64,000 bases of DNA from Candidatus Krumholzibacteriota bacterium. Lineage in GTDB: Bacteria > Krumholzibacteriota > Krumholzibacteriia > JAJRXK01. How positions within the stretch are numbered: position 1 is the first letter of the stretch; every line of letters starts with the position of its first letter. The stretch is taken from the NCBI GenBank assembly GCA_963727455.1, contig CAVSGG010000005.1, forward strand, positions 66,081-130,080. The letters run 5' to 3'. Made by a program: the position numbers and the translations under genes. The notes under the pieces are model-generated. The model was not told the origin of the DNA. It ran no database searches and saw only the letters and a list, made by a program, of their open reading frames with translations. Below, one piece after another: positions 3,187 through 54,576 of this stretch.

Positions 3187-5604
3187 ATGAGCAAGAGCAC
3201 CAAGGACAGAACCACAGAGGAGCTGGAGCTTTTGCCCAACCGCTTACCGCTCTTGCCCCTGCGCGATGTGGTGATCTTCCCGGGTGCGATCGTGCCGCTC
3301 TTGGTGGGTCGCGAACGAAGCATCCTCGCTCTGAATGCGGCAGCCGATGAAGAGAAGCTGCTAGTGGTCGCCGCGCAGCGCGAGCCGGAAGTGTCCGATC
3401 CGGGCTCGGAGGACATCTACTCCGTGGGCACCCTGGTGCGGATCCACCAGGTGCTGCGGCTGCCCGACGGCACCACCAAGATCCTCATCGAGGGAGTTTC
3501 CCGCGCCGAGATCCTCGCGCATCATCAGAACGAGGGCTACCTCACCGTCGACTTCAGGCTGTGTGAGGTCATCACCGAACCCGCCAGCACGGAGCTGGAG
3601 GCTCTGTGCCGCCAAGTGGTGGAGCTCTTCGAGGACTACGTACACCTGCACAAACGCATCCCGGACGAAACCGTCGTGGCGGCACAGCGAATCGAGGACG
3701 CTGATTCTCTGGCCGATACGGTGGCCGCGCAGTTGGTGGTGGGCGTCGCCCTGCGTCAAGAACTCCTGGAGAACCAGAGAACTACTCCCCGCTTGCGCGA
3801 ACTCGCGAAGATCCTGCGGCGCGAGATCGAAATTCTCGGAGTCGAGCGGAGGATCGAGGGCGAGGTCAAACAGCAGGTGGAGAAGGGCCAGAAGGAGTTC
3901 TACCTCAACGAGCAGTTGCGCGCGATCCGCAAAGAACTCGGATACGGACCCGAGGAAGATGACGAAATCGAGGAGCTGATCAAGCGAATCGAACACGCCG
4001 AGATGAGCGACGAGGCGCACGAGGTTGCTCTCAAGGAAGTGGGTCGTCTTGCCAAGATGGCCCCGATGTCTCCCGAGAGTACCGTGGTTCGCACTTACCT
4101 CGACACCCTCGTGGGTCTGCCCTGGGCCCGCCGTAGCCAGGACCGACTCGACACGCGCCGCGCCCGGCGGCGTCTCGACGCCGACCACTACGGTCTGGAG
4201 AAGGTCAAGGAGCGCATTCTCGAGTTTCTCAGCGTGGTGAAGCTCACGGGTCGCCTCCAGGGCTCGATCCTCTGTCTGGTTGGACCTCCGGGGGTGGGGA
4301 AGACCAGCCTGGGCCGCAGCATTGCCGAGAGCATGGGCCGCAATTTCGTGCGAGTGAGCTTGGGTGGGGTGCGCGATGAGGCTGAGATCCGCGGTCATCG
4401 GCGCACCTACATCGGCAGTCGCCCGGGCAGGATCATGGAGGGTCTAAAACGCGCGGGAACGCGGAATCCAGTGTTTCTTTTGGATGAGATCGACAAGCTG
4501 GGGAGCGACTTCCGCGGCGACCCCGCCTCGGCGCTACTCGAGGTTCTTGATCCCGAACAGAACAAGAGCTACAGCGACCACTTCTTGGAAGTTCCCTTCG
4601 ACCTCAGCGAAGTGTTCTTCATCACCACCGCGAACGTCTTGCACCAAATTCCACCCGCGCTCGGTGATCGCATGGAGATCATTCGCATTCCTGGTTATCT
4701 CGAACATGAGAAAGTTCTCATCGCAAAGAACTTCCTACTGCCCAAGGTTCGCAAAAGTCACGGCCTGGAGCGCACGCGTTTCACGGTGAGCGAATCCGCC
4801 TTGAAGGACGCGGTAAATCTCTATACTCGCGAGGCGGGGGTACGCAACCTCGAGCGCGAACTGGCGACGCTCTGCCGCCGGGTCGCGCGCCGCAAGGCCG
4901 AGAGACGTCCCATGCCGCGCATCATCCAGCGCAGCAATCTACAGCGTTTCCTCGGAGCGCCCAAGTACCTGCACCGTATGGTGGAGGAGGAACCCGAAGT
5001 GGGCGTGGTCAATGGCCTCGCATGGACTCCGGTGGGCGGAGAAATTCTGGAGATCGAAGTGTCCGCTCTACCGGGCAAGGGCCGGCTGACCCTGACGGGC
5101 AATCTGAAGGAAGTGATGCGAGAAAGCGCGCGGACCGCTCTCAGCTACGCGCGCTCGGTGGTGCCGGAGAGCAAGGCCTTCCTCGACCAGCACGACATCC
5201 ACATCCATGTGCCCGAGGGAGCTGTGCCCAAGGACGGACCCAGCGCGGGAACCGCAATGGCCACTGCCCTGGTGTCCATGATGACCGAGCGGAAGGTGCG
5301 ACGCGAAATGGCCATGACCGGTGAGGTGACTCTGCGAGGAAAAGTGCTCCCCATCGGAGGCCTGCCGGAGAAGGCGGTGGCTGCGCAACGCTTCGGCTGC
5401 AAGCACATCATCATTCCCGCCGACAACGAGAAGGACTATCTCGAACTTCCGCGGGACGTGCGCAAGGGTCTGAAGTGGCATCTGGTGTCACGCGTGGAAG
5501 AGGTGCTCGAGCTCGTCCTGCTGCCGGCCAAGAAGAAGGAGACGAAGGAAGACTCCCTGTTGAACGCCGGACGCAGCCGTCCGACGGAGAGCCGGGCTCA
5601 CTGA
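3187..5604 (+). CDS. lon: ATP-dependent Lon protease (LonA type)
   Basis: N-terminal LON domain LPLLPLRDVVIFPG, Walker A GPPGVGKTS, catalytic Ser context PKDGPSAGTAM and Lys context GGLPEKAVAA. ATG 3187 follows an AGGAGAGCAAGG RBS. Confidence 0.97.
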   Translation: MSKSTKDRTTEELELLPNRLPLLPLRDVVIFPGAIVPLLVGRERSILALNAAADEEKLLVVAAQREPEVSDPGSEDIYSVGTLVRIHQVLRLPDGTTKILIEGVSRAEILAHHQNEGYLTVDFRLCEVITEPASTELEALCRQVVELFEDYVHLHKRIPDETVVAAQRIEDADSLADTVAAQLVVGVALRQELLENQRTTPRLRELAKILRREIEILGVERRIEGEVKQQVEKGQKEFYLNEQLRAIRKELGYGPEEDDEIEELIKRIEHAEMSDEAHEVALKEVGRLAKMAPMSPESTVVRTYLDTLVGLPWARRSQDRLDTRRARRRLDADHYGLEKVKERILEFLSVVKLTGRLQGSILCLVGPPGVGKTSLGRSIAESMGRNFVRVSLGGVRDEAEIRGHRRTYIGSRPGRIMEGLKRAGTRNPVFLLDEIDKLGSDFRGDPASALLEVLDPEQNKSYSDHFLEVPFDLSEVFFITTANVLHQIPPALGDRMEIIRIPGYLEHEKVLIAKNFLLPKVRKSHGLERTRFTVSESALKDAVNLYTREAGVRNLERELATLCRRVARRKAERRPMPRIIQRSNLQRFLGAPKYLHRMVEEEPEVGVVNGLAWTPVGGEILEIEVSALPGKGRLTLTGNLKEVMRESARTALSYARSVVPESKAFLDQHDIHIHVPEGAVPKDGPSAGTAMATALVSMMTERKVRREMAMTGEVTLRGKVLPIGGLPEKAVAAQRFGCKHIIIPADNEKDYLELPRDVRKGLKWHLVSRVEEVLELVLLPAKKKETKEDSLLNAGRSRPTESRAH

Positions 5605-48608: not shown

Positions 48609-49316
48609 TCAGTCCGCGCGGGAGATTTTCAGGGATTCCATTCTCTCGCGTAGATCCGAGTATTCCTGCGCCGGGAGGATCTCCTCGGCGAGGGTCCAGG
48701 CGTCCGAATACCGTTCGGAGTTGAGGCCCTTGCTCAGAGTCTGAAAGAGACTGACGCGTTCGTGCGGAGCCAGGGCGGGAACGATGTCACGCAGCTCCTC
48801 CAGCTCCTGCTCCTCGGTCATGCTCGATCGCATCTGCAAAAGGACTTCCTGCAGTTCTTCCTTCGTGCACGACTGCCAGAGTTTGGTCATCGTGCGTTCC
48901 TCTTCGTCCATGTGATCGAGATAGCGCGAGATGAAGCGCTGCAAAGCACGGTAGAACTCATGGCCGAAGACCCGGCAGTGCTGCATTTTTCCCGGGTTGG
49001 AATTGATGTCGTCATAGAATGCTTCCAGTTCGGCCAGATTCGTGCGCAGGTCGGAGTGCTCTCCCTCGAGAAACTCCGCCTCGCCGGGAAACTTCGACTG
49101 CAGAAAGGGATGAATGAACTCGCTCTCGTGACGCGCGTGCATGCGAAGCATACGGCTGATGCGCCGGAACTCCGCCCCGAGATCATCGACCGCATCCGGG
49201 TCGCAGAATTCGGTGATTCCCACTCGCTCGGAAAAGTTGAAGAGTCGCCGCCGATGGCCTTTGTGGGTGGCAGTATAGAAGTCCAGGCGGTCCTCATGAT
49301 CACGATCGTTCATCAT
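48609..49316 (-). CDS. hemerythrin-like metal-binding domain protein
   Basis: Spaced His/Glu ligand pattern: HKGHRR, HARHESEFIHP, EHSDL, HEFY and YLDHMDEEE. ATG 49316 follows a GGAGAG RBS. The longer ORF to 49481 is unsupported. Confidence 0.55.
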   Translation of the reverse strand: MMNDRDHEDRLDFYTATHKGHRRRLFNFSERVGITEFCDPDAVDDLGAEFRRISRMLRMHARHESEFIHPFLQSKFPGEAEFLEGEHSDLRTNLAELEAFYDDINSNPGKMQHCRVFGHEFYRALQRFISRYLDHMDEEERTMTKLWQSCTKEELQEVLLQMRSSMTEEQELEELRDIVPALAPHERVSLFQTLSKGLNSERYSDAWTLAEEILPAQEYSDLRERMESLKISRAD

Positions 49317-49496
49317 CACTCTCCAGAGGCGGGCCGGGCGTCGAGGCGCCCACAAGAAGCGTTCTCTCGGCTCGAGACAGTCCGAGGGGACAATCTGAGT
49401 GGGGATAAGATGCAACACCCCCGCAGGCTTCGCCACCGGGCTGCCCGCGTCGGGGAGCGCCCTGAAAACGACAATTTTCATTTCTTCCCTTTACAG

Positions 49497-49512
49497 CCAA
49501 ACGATTGTTTCG
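49497..49512. promoter_or_regulatory. imperfect palindrome CCAAACGATTGTTTCG (AAAC-N4-GTTT), candidate LexA operator 1
   Basis: Read directly upstream of dinB. It has the same half-site spacing as the CGAAC-N4-GTTCG SOS box of Firmicutes. Confidence 0.3.
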
Positions 49513-49525
49513 TATTGTAGGCTCT

Positions 49526-49541
49526 ACAAACAGGAGTTTGT
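49526..49541. promoter_or_regulatory. perfect-arm palindrome ACAAAC-AGGA-GTTTGT, candidate LexA operator 2
   Basis: The 6-nt arms are perfectly complementary. It lies 65 nt upstream of the dinB GTG. Confidence 0.35.
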
Positions 49542-49605
49542 GATACCTCGCGGCTCCGTTTGTGGCCCGAGGAACGCCCCAACTCGTTGTGGAAGAGGAT
49601 CTTCC

Positions 49606-50886
49606 GTGAATTTCCCGGCTCAGAGCCCTTGGTTTGCACACGTCGATTTGGACGCCTTCTACGCCTCGGTGGAGGTTTTGGACTTTCCGCAGCTTCGAGG
49701 GCTTCCCGTGGCTGTGGGAGGCCCAGCTCAGGGCCGTGGGGTCATCGCGGCCGCCTCCTACGAAGCACGCCAATTCGGCGTGCGCAGTGCGATGCCCACG
49801 GCCCGCGCGCTCTCCCTCTGTCCGCAGCTCGTGCTGCGCGCGGGCCGCATGGGTCGCTACCAGGAGCTCAGCGAGCGGGTGTTTGGCATCGTGCGCGAGC
49901 TCAGCCCTCGCATCGAGATGGTCTCACTCGACGAGGCCTTCCTAGATCTGGCCGGCTGCGAGCGACTGCATGCACCCTGGAACGAGTTTGCGTTGCGCCT
50001 ACGACGACGCGTCCATGCCGAAACGGGGCTGTGGATGTCCATAGGAATCGGGGAGACGCGACGGATCGCCAAGATCGGCAGCGCCCTGCGCAAGCCACGC
50101 GGAGTGGTGCTGGTTCCCCGTGGCGCCGGGCGTTCCTTTCTGGCGCCCCTGCCGGTCGAGTATCTCTGGGGCGTGGGAGCCAAACTCGGTGCGCGGCTCC
50201 ACGAACATGGTTATGCCACCATCGGTGATCTCGCCGCAAGTTCGCACGCGGTTTTACGTGCGCAGTTCGGCAAGATGGGCAGTAGCCTCCTGGAAATGGC
50301 CCAGGCGCGCGAGTTGGGACACATCGATCCCGCGCGCCGCGCCAAGAGCGTGAGCCACGAACTCACCTTCGCGCGCGATCTTCACGGTGAGGCCGAGCTT
50401 CTGCCGGTGCTCTTGAAGTTCAGCGAAAAGATCGCCTACCGTCTGCGCCGGTCCGGCTGCGTAGGACGCGTCGTGCAGCTCAAGATCCGCGACAACACTT
50501 TCCATACCCTCACGCGCCGCGTCACCCTGACTGCCCCCAGCTCTTCGGAAAATGAAATCTACAAAACGGCCCAAGTTCTCCTGCGTCAGCTGAGCTGGGG
50601 TCAACGCCCCGTGCGCCTCATTGGATTGGGAATGCACGAGATCAGCCACGAGAGGGTGTCACAGGGAGAATTGTTCGCTCAAGGAAACGATCAGCTCGAC
50701 TCGAAGCTCGCGAAGACCCTCGACCGCCTGCATACCCGCTACGGCGGTGATGCCATCGGCCGCGCGCGCACCTTGCTGCGTCACACCGATAATTCCGCTT
50801 CCTGGGAAGCCGTCGCCTGGGAAAAGTCTCCAAGCCAAGTTCTCCCGTCCCGTGACGAACGAGGAGCAGACCATGATGGAAAGTAG
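49606..50886 (+). CDS. dinB: DNA polymerase IV (Y-family)
   Basis: HVDLDAFYASVE and VSLDEAFLDL catalytic motifs. The little finger ends in RLIGLGMHEIS...QGELF. No ATG precedes the conserved N-terminus, so GTG 49606 with a GGAAGAGGA RBS is used. Confidence 0.9.
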   Translation: MNFPAQSPWFAHVDLDAFYASVEVLDFPQLRGLPVAVGGPAQGRGVIAAASYEARQFGVRSAMPTARALSLCPQLVLRAGRMGRYQELSERVFGIVRELSPRIEMVSLDEAFLDLAGCERLHAPWNEFALRLRRRVHAETGLWMSIGIGETRRIAKIGSALRKPRGVVLVPRGAGRSFLAPLPVEYLWGVGAKLGARLHEHGYATIGDLAASSHAVLRAQFGKMGSSLLEMAQARELGHIDPARRAKSVSHELTFARDLHGEAELLPVLLKFSEKIAYRLRRSGCVGRVVQLKIRDNTFHTLTRRVTLTAPSSSENEIYKTAQVLLRQLSWGQRPVRLIGLGMHEISHERVSQGELFAQGNDQLDSKLAKTLDRLHTRYGGDAIGRARTLLRHTDNSASWEAVAWEKSPSQVLPSRDERGADHDGK

Positions 50887-52252
50887 CCCCACGCTGCCCA
50901 CTCTCTTGCGTCTCGACCGCGCCTGGCTCGAACTCCATGGACGAGAGGAGGCTGCGCACAAGATGCGAGAGAGCTCATGCCAGGGAATTCTCCTCGAGTG
51001 GGGTGATACCCCCAGCGGCCTCTTTTCTTTGCTGGAGATGGCGACGAGAGTTCCCTGCACGCTCTTGCCCGGGAGATGGATGCCAGCGCGGCCCGAGGCC
51101 AACGGCGGTTTCGGTGATACGGCCAAGATTCTCTGGCTGGCGCGCAGCGACGCGGCTCTGCAGGGTTTGCTCAGCGGAGTGAAACTCAGCGAGGACGAGC
51201 TCGACGGTGTGGCGCGCGCTCACGAACCACTCGCTCTCCTGGGAGTTCCCGGCGACGTGCTTCGCCCGGCCACGTCCTTTCACGACGAGGGGATTCGTCA
51301 GCGCGCGCAGAAGTGGATCGGGAGCCTGGGAGCCGATCGCGTGGCTCTGGCCATCCTCCGGCGCGAGGGCGATCCCCTGGAGGGATTGGCCCGGGAGTGG
51401 GGACTGCCGGCACTGCGCCTGACGAACGTCGACGAGGAGGAGTCCGCGGACTCGCCGAAGTCTGCCGCACTGGCTCCCATTCTGTGCACCGACTTTCAAC
51501 TCGATCGCGAGTACCGATTGCCCGACGATGCCTACGTTCCCACGCTGCGGGACCTACTGCATCGCGGGAGCCTTCTGCGGGAGCGCTGCCTCTACGAGAG
51601 TCTGCCCGAAAATTGGCGACAAAGCGCGAACGCGGAGCTTGAACTCCTCAACGAATGGATGCTCGGACCCTTGATGCGGCGGGCCGGAGCGTTGATCCAG
51701 ACCTTGCTGCCGGTGGCAGGGGTGACGGTGGAGGCGCCCTTGGCCCAGGTGGGAGGGATCTGTGCCTGGCTGCTCGGACTGAGCGAACGCCGACCCGCGC
51801 GAGAAGGCCGCCTCCCCGATCCCGAGGTGACGGCCACCGCACTGGCCCGCTCGCTGGCGGAATGGGAGCGGCGGCTGACCGCGCAAGTGAACACCGAGGC
51901 CTGGCCGCGGCTTCAGGGCCGGCTTCTTCCGTGGCTCGAGGGCGGGCTTTTGGCCGCGTGCCCGGAAACACCGCAGGGCGGAAGGCGCTTCTGCTTCAGT
52001 GGACGTGCACTTTGGTCGCGTCTTCCGCTCCTGCGCGATCACGACGGAATTCCGCGGGTACGGCTTTTCGAAGCGGACCGCCGTGCCTTAGGATGGTTCG
52101 AGCTGGAGCTGCGTGCGGCCGTAAGTAGCAAATCCCCGCGGGTGTCCACGGGGAACTCCGGCCGGACCGCAACGGTTCGCGAACTGGCACCGCCCTGCTT
52201 CGGTGCGTCGGAGCAACTAGAGCTCGGCCTGAGACTCGAACACTCGGGCTGA
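50873..52252 (+). CDS. degenerate, truncated DnaE-like (PHP plus start of palm) protein with C-terminal QLELGL motif
   Basis: By-eye colinearity with the DnaE N-terminal ~400 aa: ILWLARSDAALQGLL, WGLPALRLTNVDEE, ILCT, NAELELLNEWMLGP and GVTVEAPLAQVGGICAWLLGLS. The PHP His motif and the PDFDVDF Asp motif are not conserved. A GAGGAG RBS precedes the start, which overlaps the dinB end by 14 nt. Confidence 0.4.
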   Translation: MMESSPTLPTLLRLDRAWLELHGREEAAHKMRESSCQGILLEWGDTPSGLFSLLEMATRVPCTLLPGRWMPARPEANGGFGDTAKILWLARSDAALQGLLSGVKLSEDELDGVARAHEPLALLGVPGDVLRPATSFHDEGIRQRAQKWIGSLGADRVALAILRREGDPLEGLAREWGLPALRLTNVDEEESADSPKSAALAPILCTDFQLDREYRLPDDAYVPTLRDLLHRGSLLRERCLYESLPENWRQSANAELELLNEWMLGPLMRRAGALIQTLLPVAGVTVEAPLAQVGGICAWLLGLSERRPAREGRLPDPEVTATALARSLAEWERRLTAQVNTEAWPRLQGRLLPWLEGGLLAACPETPQGGRRFCFSGRALWSRLPLLRDHDGIPRVRLFEADRRALGWFELELRAAVSSKSPRVSTGNSGRTATVRELAPPCFGASEQLELGLRLEHSG

Positions 52253-52280
52253 AGGGAAATCTCATCTGGAGGGGAAACGA

Positions 52281-52943
52281 GTGAGAAAACCAACTCGAGA
52301 ATTGACGTCGCGCCAAGGAGAGGTTCTCGAGGCGCTCTGCCAGTGGATGAAAGACCACGGCTACCCTCCGAGTATCCGTGAGTTGGGAGAGGCGGTCGGT
52401 CTCTTGAGCACGCGCAGCGTGCACGACCATCTTCGCCAGCTGGAACGGAAGGGGTTTATCCGCCGTCGCCGTGATCACTCGCGTGCGATCGAGATCCTGA
52501 AGATGCCGAAGGGAACCCGAAAGCCGCGTCGCGCTCCGGTTGTCCGGGAAGGGCGACACGTGAGAGTTCCGATCATTGGGGAGGTGGCGGCGGGTAGCCC
52601 CATCCTCGCCGAGGAGCGGATCGACGGCGAACTCGAGTGCGATGTCTCGATGGTACCCGACCCCAACTGTTATCTTCTGCGGGTGCGGGGAGAGTCGATG
52701 ATCGGCGCACACGTGTGCGACGGCGACCTCATTCTGGTGCGGCCCCAGCAGGAGGCCCGCAACGGCGAGATCGTGGTGGTGCTCATCGAGGACTCGGTGA
52801 CTTTGAAGCGTTTTTACCGCCGCGAGGGCTACGTCGAGCTGAAGCCCGAAAACGGCCAGATGGCGTCCATCCTCCTCACGCCGGAGATGGGGCACGCGCG
52901 TATTTTGGGGAAGCTCATGGGAGTGATCCGGCGCTATTACTGA
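52281..52943 (+). CDS. lexA: LexA repressor
   Basis: Winged-HTH region YPPSIRELGEAVGLLSTRSVHDHLRQLERKGFIRR, Ala-Gly cleavage site in GEVAAGSP, Ser in GESMIGA and Lys in TLKRFY. The GTG start follows a GGAGGGG RBS, 28 nt after the preceding stop. Confidence 0.93.
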   Translation: MRKPTRELTSRQGEVLEALCQWMKDHGYPPSIRELGEAVGLLSTRSVHDHLRQLERKGFIRRRRDHSRAIEILKMPKGTRKPRRAPVVREGRHVRVPIIGEVAAGSPILAEERIDGELECDVSMVPDPNCYLLRVRGESMIGAHVCDGDLILVRPQQEARNGEIVVVLIEDSVTLKRFYRREGYVELKPENGQMASILLTPEMGHARILGKLMGVIRRYY

Positions 52944-53057
52944 ATGCGCGGGTCTTCCAGCAGAAGAACGGTCCCGCCGGGCGCGACTTCGGGAGCGGAA
53001 GCCAGTCCTTGCGCTCAATGGACCTTCTGTCTAGCCTAGGGGCCCATTGCCTTGGGC

Positions 53058-53134
53058 GGCCCCATCGTCTAGTCAGGTCAGGACACCACCCTTTCAAGGT
53101 GGGTACACGGGTTCGAATCCCGTTGGGGCTGCCA
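53058..53134 (+). tRNA. tRNA-Glu (anticodon UUC), CCA encoded
   Basis: Hand fold. Acceptor GGCCCCA/TGGGGCT (G1-U72 wobble), anticodon stem CCACC/GGTGG with loop CTTTCAA, T arm ACGGG-TTCGAAT-CCCGT, then discriminator G and CCA. Confidence 0.9.
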
Positions 53135-53166
53135 ACCTACCCTCTGCTGCACACGCGGACTCGCCC

Positions 53167-53790
53167 TCAGAACACCCAGTTGACGATGGGGAGGATCGGC
53201 AGCTTCTCCTTGCTCTTGATGACGTTCACCAGCCCGATCTGCAGCCCGTGCATGTTGTTGGTCATGTTCACCAGTCCGAACTGCAGCCCATTCATGTCCT
53301 CGGTCATGTTCACGAACCCCAGCATGAGGCCTTTGCTGTGGCCATTTTGCACCAAGTTCGCCGCACCCCACTGCCAGCCCTGGAAATCTGCATCGGCGAG
53401 GTTGATGAAGCCCCACTGGATTCCCTCCATGCCGGCGGCCTGGTTGTAAAAGCCCCACTGCATCCCCTGCACGTCTCCCTTGGTGTAGTTGACGAAGCTC
53501 CACTGGAGTCCAGCGGCGGTGCCGTCCACCACATTCGCGATCCCCAAGGCCACTCCGGTGAAGGGGCCGGTGGTCAACAGCCCCAGACCGAAGTCGATGC
53601 CCTGAACCTCGGAATTGCGGCCCACGATGGCCAGGCGCACCCCGTGGATGGCAGTCTGCTCGGAGAAGAGCTGGACCGAGGGGACCAGGGAGAGCTGGAT
53701 GGGACGGGCCTCCTCTGCCTTCGCCGGACCGGGCAGGAGCAGTCCGGCAAGCAGCGTAAGAGCCAGCGCAAAGCGAGCGGCACGTTTCAT
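53167..53790 (-). CDS. secreted repeat protein with about ten 12-18-aa xxGxQ(W/F/I)G(F/L)xN repeats, C-terminal Phe
   Basis: ATG 53790 follows a GGAGGA RBS. Signal peptide FALALTLLAGLLLPGPAKA. Repeats include VQGMQWGFYNQAAG, MEGIQWGFINLADAD, MNGLQFGLVNMTNN and MHGLQIGLVNVIK. The protein ends in NWVF. Confidence 0.7.
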   Translation of the reverse strand: MKRAARFALALTLLAGLLLPGPAKAEEARPIQLSLVPSVQLFSEQTAIHGVRLAIVGRNSEVQGIDFGLGLLTTGPFTGVALGIANVVDGTAAGLQWSFVNYTKGDVQGMQWGFYNQAAGMEGIQWGFINLADADFQGWQWGAANLVQNGHSKGLMLGFVNMTEDMNGLQFGLVNMTNNMHGLQIGLVNVIKSKEKLPILPIVNWVF

Positions 53791-53949
53791 GGGATGATCC
53801 TCCAAAGGAATGGTGTTGGTCGATGCGACCGGGGAACTCCGGCAGGCTAGCACGCAGTGCTTTGTCCGCATAGGGCAATGAGTGGGCGACGCGGCAGCCG
53901 TATTCCATTCGTTGACAGCAAGCATTGCCACTGGCAGGATCGGTCCATC

Positions 53950-54576
53950 ATGATCGACCTGAGAACTTACGCATTTCTTGACGTACTCCAGCCACAGCTC
54001 GCGGCCGCAGTGGGCACCACCTGCCGTGGCTTTCAGCCCGTTCCCGGGGTAGCTTCTCTCTGGGTGGAGATCGCGCCGGCGATCCGTATCCACGAGGTTC
54101 TCGACGCGGCGCTCAAGAGTACCGCGGTTCGCCCCGCCACCATCGCTACCGAGCGCGCCTTCGGGCTGTGCGAGGTGAATCACTTCGATCAGGGAGAGGT
54201 TCGCGAAGCTGGCGCGAGCATCCTGCGAGCCCTGGGGAAGTCGGAAAGCGACCGCGCGAAGCCCCGGCTCGTCTCCTCCACCGTGATTCGTGGGGTGGAG
54301 CCCTACCACACCCAGCTCATCAACCGCACGCGCTTCGGCGCCATGATCGTGCCCGGGGAATCGCTGCTCATTCTGGAGACGGAACCGGCCGCGTACTGCA
54401 TGCTCGCAGCCAACGAAGCCGAGAAGGCGGCTCCGGTGCGATTGGTCGACTCCAATCCCATCGGCGCCTTCGGCCGCCTCTACATGTGCGGGGGAGAGGC
54501 CGAGATCGACGCGGCACGAGCGGCGGCGGAAAAGGCCCTGAAGAGTCTCAACGGTCGCGACCTCCAGCACTCCTAG
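53950..54576 (+). CDS. tandem BMC-domain-like protein (BMC-T-like shell protein homologue)
   Basis: There are two halves, each with a BMC-like pattern: [28 protein letters not shown]...[11 protein letters not shown] and [30 protein letters not shown]...[17 protein letters not shown]. The family call is by pattern memory only. Confidence 0.45.

Follow-up and report, generated by a model that had tools for sequence, protein, structure and literature searches.

The ImuA-ImuB-DnaE2 (ImuC) mutasome is a LexA-linked cassette that pairs a Y-family with a C-family protein, in which one of the pair is dead and carries a clamp-binding motif, and in which the Y-family member bears a RecA-NT motif. In that cassette the dead Y-family protein, ImuB, tethers a live C-family polymerase. 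Here we describe a locus, dinB-X-lexA, that has these same general traits with the roles of the two proteins exchanged: the Y-family polymerase DinB is active, while the C-family protein, encoded by a gene that we call X, is predicted to be dead and to be cut to a PHP-like barrel and a palm. The locus lies in a 64,000-nucleotide stretch of DNA from Candidatus Krumholzibacteriota (contig CAVSGG010000005.1); this whole stretch is referred to as the window, and coordinates are counted from its first letter. It further differs from the mutasome cassette in having no ImuA and no ImuB-C domain, and in that X is invisible to DnaE hidden Markov models (HMMs). Compared with ImuB itself, X has a C-family fold and no RecA-NT motif, and it is DinB that carries a RecA-NT-like motif. 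The three genes are as follows.

49606..50886, + strand: dinB, active Y-family polymerase (Pol IV), 426 aa from a GTG start, assigned by Pfam, NCBIfam and motifs
50873..52252, + strand: gene X, predicted 459-aa catalytically dead C-family polymerase remnant, a new family without a Pfam match, assigned by family and fold data
52281..52943, + strand: lexA, canonical SOS repressor, 220 aa, assigned by TIGR00498 (215.7 bits against a cutoff of 111) and Pfam LexA_DNA_bind and Peptidase_S24

Active Y-family polymerases are also known beside C-family genes. Bacteroidetes have modules of an active PolY, DnaE2 and RecA (PMC6511836, and the accessible portion of a 2026 survey of C-family polymerases, PMC12926913), and PolY-DnaE2/ImuB-C operons often include lexA (PMC6511836). 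Within its accessible portion, the 2026 survey presents AlphaFold models of mutasomes in which the PHP domain of DnaE2 is the main interface with ImuB-C, and the 11 mutasome module types given there include no dead C-family component; it used complete genomes only and discarded truncated sequences (PMC12926913). Another C-family survey discarded fragments without an intact active site (PMC3919608).

In the PolY2-DnaE2B-RecA type, as found in Cellulophaga algicola, an active PolY with a RecA-NT motif stands beside a C-family gene and lexA is often included, much as in the window, but DnaE2B is full-length and apparently active, whereas X is dead and has about 40% of that length. This type is the most plausible ancestral arrangement of dinB-X-lexA; descent of X from DnaE2B itself is not demonstrable with profiles. 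The FCB group comprises both phyla, Krumholzibacteriota as well as Bacteroidetes.

Dead polymerase paralogues act as scaffolds in eukaryotes. In bacteria a dead polymerase scaffold is known in the Y family (ImuB), and the C-family surveys, as far as their accessible text extends, describe none. A full-text literature search returned no description of a dead, truncated C-family protein like X, and a helper protein of the X type does not seem to have been described previously. We file X as a new, unannotated protein family within the mutasome-type, SOS-linked, multi-subunit translesion systems.

Gene X encodes a conserved protein

The product of X is 459 aa long and begins MMESS, and its translation start is preceded by the following signal.

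50861..50866, + strand: GAGGAG ribosome-binding site of X, within the 3' end of dinB, six bases ahead of the ATG

The open reading frame (ORF) lies exactly where an earlier note on this DNA, made by reading the letters without database searches, had put it, and this ribosome-binding site, the 14-nt overlap with dinB (whose stop codon ends at 50886) and the 28-nt gap between the X stop and the GTG start of lexA at 52281 agree with that note. The G/C-rich third codon positions described in that note are likewise present, with GC content per codon position of 0.72/0.52/0.74 in X and the same pattern in dinB and lexA, in a region of 0.63-0.68 GC overall.

A word-indexed search of 5.8 billion proteins retrieved 31 homologues of X at 39-88% identity. 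All are unnamed or labelled "hypothetical", and all those with a named organism come from Candidatus Krumholzibacteriota. Species-representative genomes yielded seven matches, all of them in metagenome-assembled genomes (MAGs), five labelled Candidatus Krumholzibacteriota or Krumholzibacteriia and two only "uncultured bacterium". Looked up as an exact sequence, the X protein of the window matched no contig. Run exhaustively as an HMM against 1.84 billion cluster representatives, the X family profile returned 15 proteins, essentially the X family itself, and recovered no DnaE; one repeat protein that appeared in this search at E 3.6e-4 was treated as spurious. Neither the single sequence nor the family profile matched anything in Pfam, NCBIfam, PHROGs, PADLOC or the PDB sequences, and the number of Pfam and NCBIfam families reaching E<=1, with the PHP, DNA_pol3_alpha and dnaE models included, was zero.

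An alignment of 27 X sequences contains 56 invariant columns. The ratio of nonsynonymous to synonymous substitution rates (dN/dS), computed pairwise among the window and two relatives, is 0.15-0.16 for X at dS 0.49-0.95, and 0.11-0.16 for the adjacent dinB. X is a conserved protein under purifying selection. The earlier note had allowed that X might be absent or disrupted in close relatives, or might evolve neutrally; relatives instead keep X in synteny and under selective constraint.

These data bear directly on whether X might be a decaying dnaE2 remnant, or a spurious ORF held open by high GC. The GC-rich surroundings (0.63-0.68) and the lack of an annotated family match, with all sources labelling X hypothetical, are what one would expect in that case, but a dN/dS of ~0.15 equal to that of dinB, full-length homologues down to 39% identity, the 56 invariant columns, a conserved terminal motif, confident AlphaFold models, and conservation of both the ribosome-binding site and the start-stop coupling with dinB are not, and we consider this explanation scarcely credible. 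A decaying remnant with neutral dN/dS is excluded by the observed 0.15-0.16, and a pseudogene or chance ORF is effectively refuted by conservation and dN/dS together.

Predicted structure of X

The folded part of X is divided as follows.

50873..51472, + strand: PHP-like (beta/alpha)7 barrel, X residues 1-200, without the metal-binding histidines, from the model and the alignment to E. coli DnaE 1-206
51476..51526, + strand: nearly invariant loop PLLWTDFQLDxEHRLPD, X residues 202-218, of low confidence, from the alignment
51536..52126, + strand: degenerate palm of Pol-beta-like nucleotidyltransferase fold, X residues 222-418, without the Asp triad and the thumb, from the sub-model and residue mapping

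An AlphaFold model of X was built from the family alignment. The whole-protein model has a mean predicted local distance difference test score (pLDDT) of 78.7 and a predicted template modelling score (pTM) of 0.76, with disorder confined to residues 420-459 and a few loops. Foldseek against the PDB gave 20 matches with E<=0.001, all of which are C-family polymerases (Taq Pol III alpha, M. tuberculosis DnaE1, E. coli alpha and PolC), the best at E 2.6e-11 and probability 1.00, with query-normalised template modelling scores (TMq) of up to 0.49 over ~600 alignment columns. The best structural matches are to the N-terminal region of Pol III alpha / DnaE1 (PDB 2hpi, 4iqj, 2hnh, 7pu7), which like X consists of a PHP barrel followed by a palm, and identity in these structural alignments is 9-15%. 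The PHP constructs of alpha-epsilon chimeras (4gx8) reach E 2e-4, and stand-alone PHP phosphoesterases at E ~0.04-0.09. When the viral model library BFVD was searched, the top 17 matches were phage DnaE proteins, with a best E of 6.6e-11. Significant matches are therefore C-family polymerases alone in two libraries, which bears out the earlier suggestion that X is DnaE-like.

The barrel of X is made up of seven alternating strand-helix units (residues 10-191, pLDDT ~90), and the Foldseek matches cover DnaE from its N-terminus. The loop that follows has a pLDDT of ~50 and is aligned to E. coli DnaE 216-226; its invariant residues are P202, L204, F208, Q209, D211, E213, R215, P217 and D218. To test the part beyond the PHP domain, residues 222-422 were modelled separately. 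This sub-model (pLDDT 88.7, pTM 0.83) has Pol III alpha from Taq and M. tuberculosis as its top six PDB matches, at E 5e-3 to 7e-2, probability 0.93-1.00 and TMq 0.40-0.51, followed by non-significant matches to alarmone synthetases, Pol beta, Pol lambda, TdT and OAS. The C-family palm itself belongs to the Pol-beta-like nucleotidyltransferase superfamily. Because Pol III alpha tops the matches both for the whole model and for residues 222-422 alone, the predicted structure identifies X as the PHP-like barrel plus degenerate palm of a C-family (Pol III alpha/DnaE) polymerase.

The extent of the fold was described only partly correctly before. X does not stop ahead of the palm core, as had been claimed, since it includes the last palm strand, where E. 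coli has D555; it is nevertheless truncated, as had also been claimed, and breaks off near E. coli residue 560, roughly where the palm gives way to the fingers, without the fingers and the clamp/OB domains.

Alignment to DnaE and loss of the active sites

We aligned the X family profile by hhalign to a reference of 14 DnaE N-termini (DnaE1, DnaE2 and plasmid DnaE). The best path is colinear, pairing X 22-419 with E. coli DnaE 22-562 at P 0.0023, and includes blocks such as X 247-305 with E. coli 320-378; the single E. coli sequence suffices to recover X 247-312 as DnaE 320-385. The real score is 34.7. Reversing the profile lowers it to 17.5, and among 12 block-shuffled profiles the scores span 24.5-35.3, with one above the real value. 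At the level of sequence the link between X and DnaE is thus suggestive, and since the score does not exceed the block-shuffled controls, the relationship rests on the structure comparison. The five blocks that had been matched to DnaE by eye all lie on the hhalign path, so their colinearity stands, though with one of 12 shuffled controls scoring higher the sequence signal is weak by itself. With the reference split into DnaE1-, DnaE2- and plasmid-type profiles, DnaE1 gave P 0.0056 and DnaE2 P 0.04, with no preference for DnaE2.

The catalytic aspartates (D401, D403 and D555 of E. coli) show no variation among the 14 reference sequences, and neither does the GRGS nucleotide-binding motif. D401 corresponds to D316 of X, kept in 21 of the 27 family members, D403 to E318, which is variable (V in 10, E in 6, and others), and D555 to E412, kept in 19 of 27; the GRGS position reads P-L-A. 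As for the nine PHP metal ligands (HHDHEH[C/H]DH), none of the DnaE1 His/Cys positions is a conserved His or Cys across the 27 X sequences, and the family alignment holds no invariant His at all. Two placements in the earlier note have to be moved by 4-8 residues: the HxH position, given there as WLELHGREE, falls at X 10-15 (TLLRLD), and the PDFDVDF position, given as TATALAR, aligns to X 315-318 (PDPE).

Three stretches of E. coli DnaE (~228-274, ~387-398 and ~410-456) have no counterpart in X on the hhalign path. We read the last of these gaps, together with the order of secondary-structure elements in the model, as loss of the thumb, in a part where the alignment is uncertain. The last folded residue of X, ~419, corresponds to E. 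coli ~562, and the fingers, beta-binding (HhH)2, OB and C-terminal domains are absent; all of alpha past ~560 is missing. Since the PHP ligands, Asp triad, thumb, fingers, beta-binding and OB domains are lost, X as modelled cannot polymerise. The catalytic degeneracy proposed earlier is upheld by the alignment, in which the Asp triad, GRGS and the PHP histidines are not kept.

We considered whether X could instead have a rebuilt PHP pocket and act as an enzyme or bind a ligand, assisting DinB by, for example, 3'-end or nucleotide handling. X does have invariant residues at the ends of barrel strands (R91/D93, D128 and D155/R156), these charged invariants stand right after strands 4 and 5 and before strand 6, which are PHP active-site locations, and 21 of 27 homologues retain D316, the counterpart of E. 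coli D401. Nevertheless, X retains 0/9 canonical PHP ligands and its family has no invariant His, the matches to stand-alone PHP phosphoesterases reach only E ~0.04-0.09, and no enzyme family matches X by sequence. We regard a rebuilt pocket as improbable.

The BFVD matches include several short phage Pol III alpha-like proteins of 447-536 aa, one of which adjoins a 175-aa PHP protein, so C-family polymerases occur in pieces elsewhere. By analogy with some phages, X could be the N-terminal part of an active C-family polymerase encoded in pieces, and the short viral proteins speak for such a possibility. In the window, however, the gene after X is lexA and not a fingers/OB fragment, and the profile search of 1.84 billion proteins gave no partner-like relatives. 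The loss of the Asp triad and GRGS in X itself rules this reading out, and we attach practically no weight to it.

The C-terminal tail carries a clamp-binding-type motif

Beyond the palm, X continues with two further elements.

52130..52210, + strand: variable disordered linker, X residues 420-446, pLDDT ~39, unalignable among homologues
52214..52231, + strand: QLELGL, hexapeptide beta-clamp-binding-type motif (QLxLxL), X residues 448-453, recognised by conservation

Q448 is invariant among the 27 sequences, conservation of L449 and L453 is 90% or more, and the pattern QLxLx[LF] occurs in 25 of the 27 homologue tails, which are otherwise unalignable. The Pol IV-style clamp motif reported at these coordinates is thereby confirmed, and it follows a disordered linker. 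E. coli Pol IV ends in QLVLGL, its beta-clamp-binding peptide. X has the same hexapeptide pattern as this and other QLxLx[LF] peptides, at the extreme C-terminus and with a flexible linker ahead of it, but here the motif sits on a non-polymerase and clamp binding is putative. Compared with Pol III alpha, the motif is terminal in X and internal in alpha. The tail motif thus fits the hexapeptide class of beta-clamp-binding motifs, and X may dock on the clamp through it.

Past the QLxLxL motif most homologues end in LEGxGA, QENTA or ERSA (window 52232-52249), with Ala as the last residue in 20 of 27, and a semi-conserved aromatic patch (AFPF, PFPF or TFPL) lies ~10-15 residues ahead of it. These endings and the patch could be extra contact or degradation signals.

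Operon structure and candidate LexA operators

The order dinB-X-lexA is kept across the loci examined, in several distinct flanking contexts, with the exception of one lineage without dinB that is described below; lexA is always the gene directly after X. At the junction of dinB and X, the stop and start codons overlap by 1-14 nt in eight of 10 loci and are 2 nt and 26 nt apart in the other two, which we take as a sign that dinB and X are translationally coupled. No imuA or ImuB partner is found beside X, whose neighbours are the active dinB and lexA alone. The LexA sequence shows the VAAG and Ser/Lys motifs.

Upstream of dinB we located the following elements.

49490..49518, + strand: sigma-70-like operon promoter, TTTACA, 17-nt spacer, TATTGT, the sole promoter-like site in 49300-53300
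49498..49511, + strand: putative LexA operator 1 (CAAACGATTGTTTC), a CAAAC-N4-GTTTC palindrome in the promoter spacer, from position and conservation
49527..49540, + strand: putative LexA operator 2 (CAAACAGGAGTTTG), CAAAC-N4-GTTTG, just past the -10, the sole perfect match in the 64-kb window

The same promoter layout is found upstream of dinB in all related loci. The shorter palindrome AAAC-N4-GTTT occurs in each related locus (L001-L012, L027-L030 and L034-L036) at the promoter position only, and in 0/18 other loci. We propose CAAAC-N4-GTTTG, which stands in tandem at the promoter and is a variant of the GAAC-N4-GTTC type, as the candidate SOS box, or LexA operator, of Candidatus Krumholzibacteriota. 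With lexA as the last gene and conserved palindromes at the promoter, dinB-X-lexA is most simply interpreted as an autoregulated SOS operon. The palindrome also provides a candidate LexA operator for an uncultured phylum.

DinB and its C-terminal motifs

DinB matches Pfam IMS (4.4e-43), IMS_C (6.9e-28) and IMS_HHH, and NCBIfam PRK02406 at 306 bits against a cutoff of 256; the database also contains a 426-aa protein 100% identical to it. The following motifs were found in its C-terminal part.

50662..50676, + strand: DinB's own clamp-binding-type motif, QGELF, with Q, L and F invariant in 8 family members
50698..50766, + strand: RecA-NT-like motif in the DinB tail (DSKLAKTLDRLHTRYGGDAIGRA), from hhalign to E. 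coli RecA 8-30, P=0.0014
50794..50823, + strand: clade-specific DinB tail motif SASWEAVAWE, conserved, with W52 of the tail alignment invariant

The catalytic D, D and E residues and the motifs VDLDAFYASVE and SLDEAF are retained and the little finger ends in QGELF, both as previously noted, with Q[GA][ED]LF as the pattern across the clade. The sole Pfam match in the RecA-NT-like region is DUF4113 at E=0.1, and in X the corresponding hhalign comparison found no RecA-NT motif, giving a 9-column match at P 0.052. The conserved form of the third motif is SASWExxAW, C-terminal to the RecA-NT-like motif, and we suggest SASWEAVAWE as a candidate docking peptide for X.

One dinB, that of locus L012, has a single in-frame TGA (5500-5504) where all relatives have Phe (RDRG*HTF); elsewhere this gene is intact and conserved. 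Either a sequencing error or a nonsense mutation of very recent date could account for the stop codon.

Possible role of X

We propose X as an SOS-induced, clamp-tethered, non-catalytic accessory of translesion synthesis that works with the RecA-NT-bearing DinB, and we give this proposal an even chance of being correct. Under it, LexA would repress dinB-X-lexA through the promoter palindromes, and DNA damage would induce DinB, X and new LexA together. The tail of X would then dock on the beta sliding clamp, where X might serve as a scaffold or polymerase-switch factor, itself non-catalytic, for translesion synthesis by DinB. X would most likely descend from a dnaE2-type gene in a polY-dnaE2-lexA operon; a truncated dnaE2 descendant is plausible because active PolY-DnaE2 operons, often with lexA, are known.

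A more specific formulation, to which we lean slightly against committing, is an "inverted mutasome", in which the dead C-family remnant would be a clamp-tethering regulatory subunit of an active Y-family polymerase, together with RecA, or alternatively an SOS-induced mimic of Pol III alpha that evicts the replicase from the clamp. If true, this would be the twelfth type of bacterial multi-subunit translesion polymerase and the first pseudo-enzyme scaffold from the replicative-polymerase lineage. If X works with DinB or the clamp, the design of a live polymerase with a dead polymerase scaffold would have evolved in both directions, and X would be a compact, testable model for the part played by PHP and palm surfaces in polymerase traffic at the clamp.

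Several observations weigh against the proposed accessory role. LexA binding to the palindromes is read from their position and conservation, and the sequence signal linking X to DnaE is not significant against block-shuffled profiles. Descent from dnaE2 is a conjecture, since no preference for DnaE2 over DnaE1 was found. Pfam detected no ImuB-C (DUF6504) domain in the window DinB, and in mutasomes it is ImuB-C that contacts the PHP domain of DnaE2. DinB has its own clamp motif and thus no obvious need of X for access to the clamp. Finally, in the lineage without dinB (L009 type), dinB is cleanly absent from the operon while the promoter, boxes, X-lexA and flanking genes are the same, in the layout Hemerythrin (- strand), promoter and boxes, X, lexA (L009 5740-6040; also L034, L035 and L036). 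This layout was seen in three independent assemblies, an NCBI MAG, a JGI contig and an ENA contig, and X of this lineage keeps all family invariants. GCA_029932915.1 is a MAG whose operon has no dinB. Since this lineage keeps X-lexA, X is retained there without a cis-encoded DinB, which weakens a strict DinB-partner reading.

The retention of X without dinB would be better accommodated if X were a decoy of Pol III alpha, or replisome brake, that is incapable of synthesis and, once induced in the SOS response, competes with the replicative polymerase for the clamp cleft and possibly for PHP partners such as the proofreader. Such a protein would slow replication or make the clamp available to any repair polymerase, with no dependence on DinB. 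X keeps a clamp motif but none of the domains for DNA synthesis or for gripping DNA, is putatively SOS-controlled, and remains beside lexA in the lineage whose operon lost dinB; across the loci, no link is more constant than X-lexA adjacency. However, X has neither the tau-binding nor the beta-binding domain by which alpha is anchored in the replisome, the tight translational coupling of dinB and X across the examined loci speaks for a stoichiometric partner, and in those loci every DinB of the clade with the extra tail motif has X downstream. A decoy role is therefore, in our judgement, unlikely, while deserving more attention than a rebuilt PHP pocket, and a DinB-linked accessory is our preferred interpretation of X.

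Outgroup loci and neighbouring genes

Neither X nor lexA adjoins an outgroup dinB of 48% identity, and no evolutionary intermediate leading to X was found among the outgroup DinB loci. In one of these (L032, 6001-8874) an active PolY is fused to a DUF6504 (ImuB-C-type) domain and is followed by a 416-aa protein without a Pfam match. By hhalign this protein, considered as a relative of X, proved unrelated to it; it may represent a further, uncharacterised accessory of PolY.

Downstream of lexA, the window contains two overlapping long ORFs on opposite strands (53167-54576). The ORF on the - strand would encode a signal-peptide protein with repeats of the GLQ(F/I)GLVN(M/V) type, and the counterpart of the + strand ORF in the syntenic locus L001 is a CsoS1D_N/BMC-domain protein.

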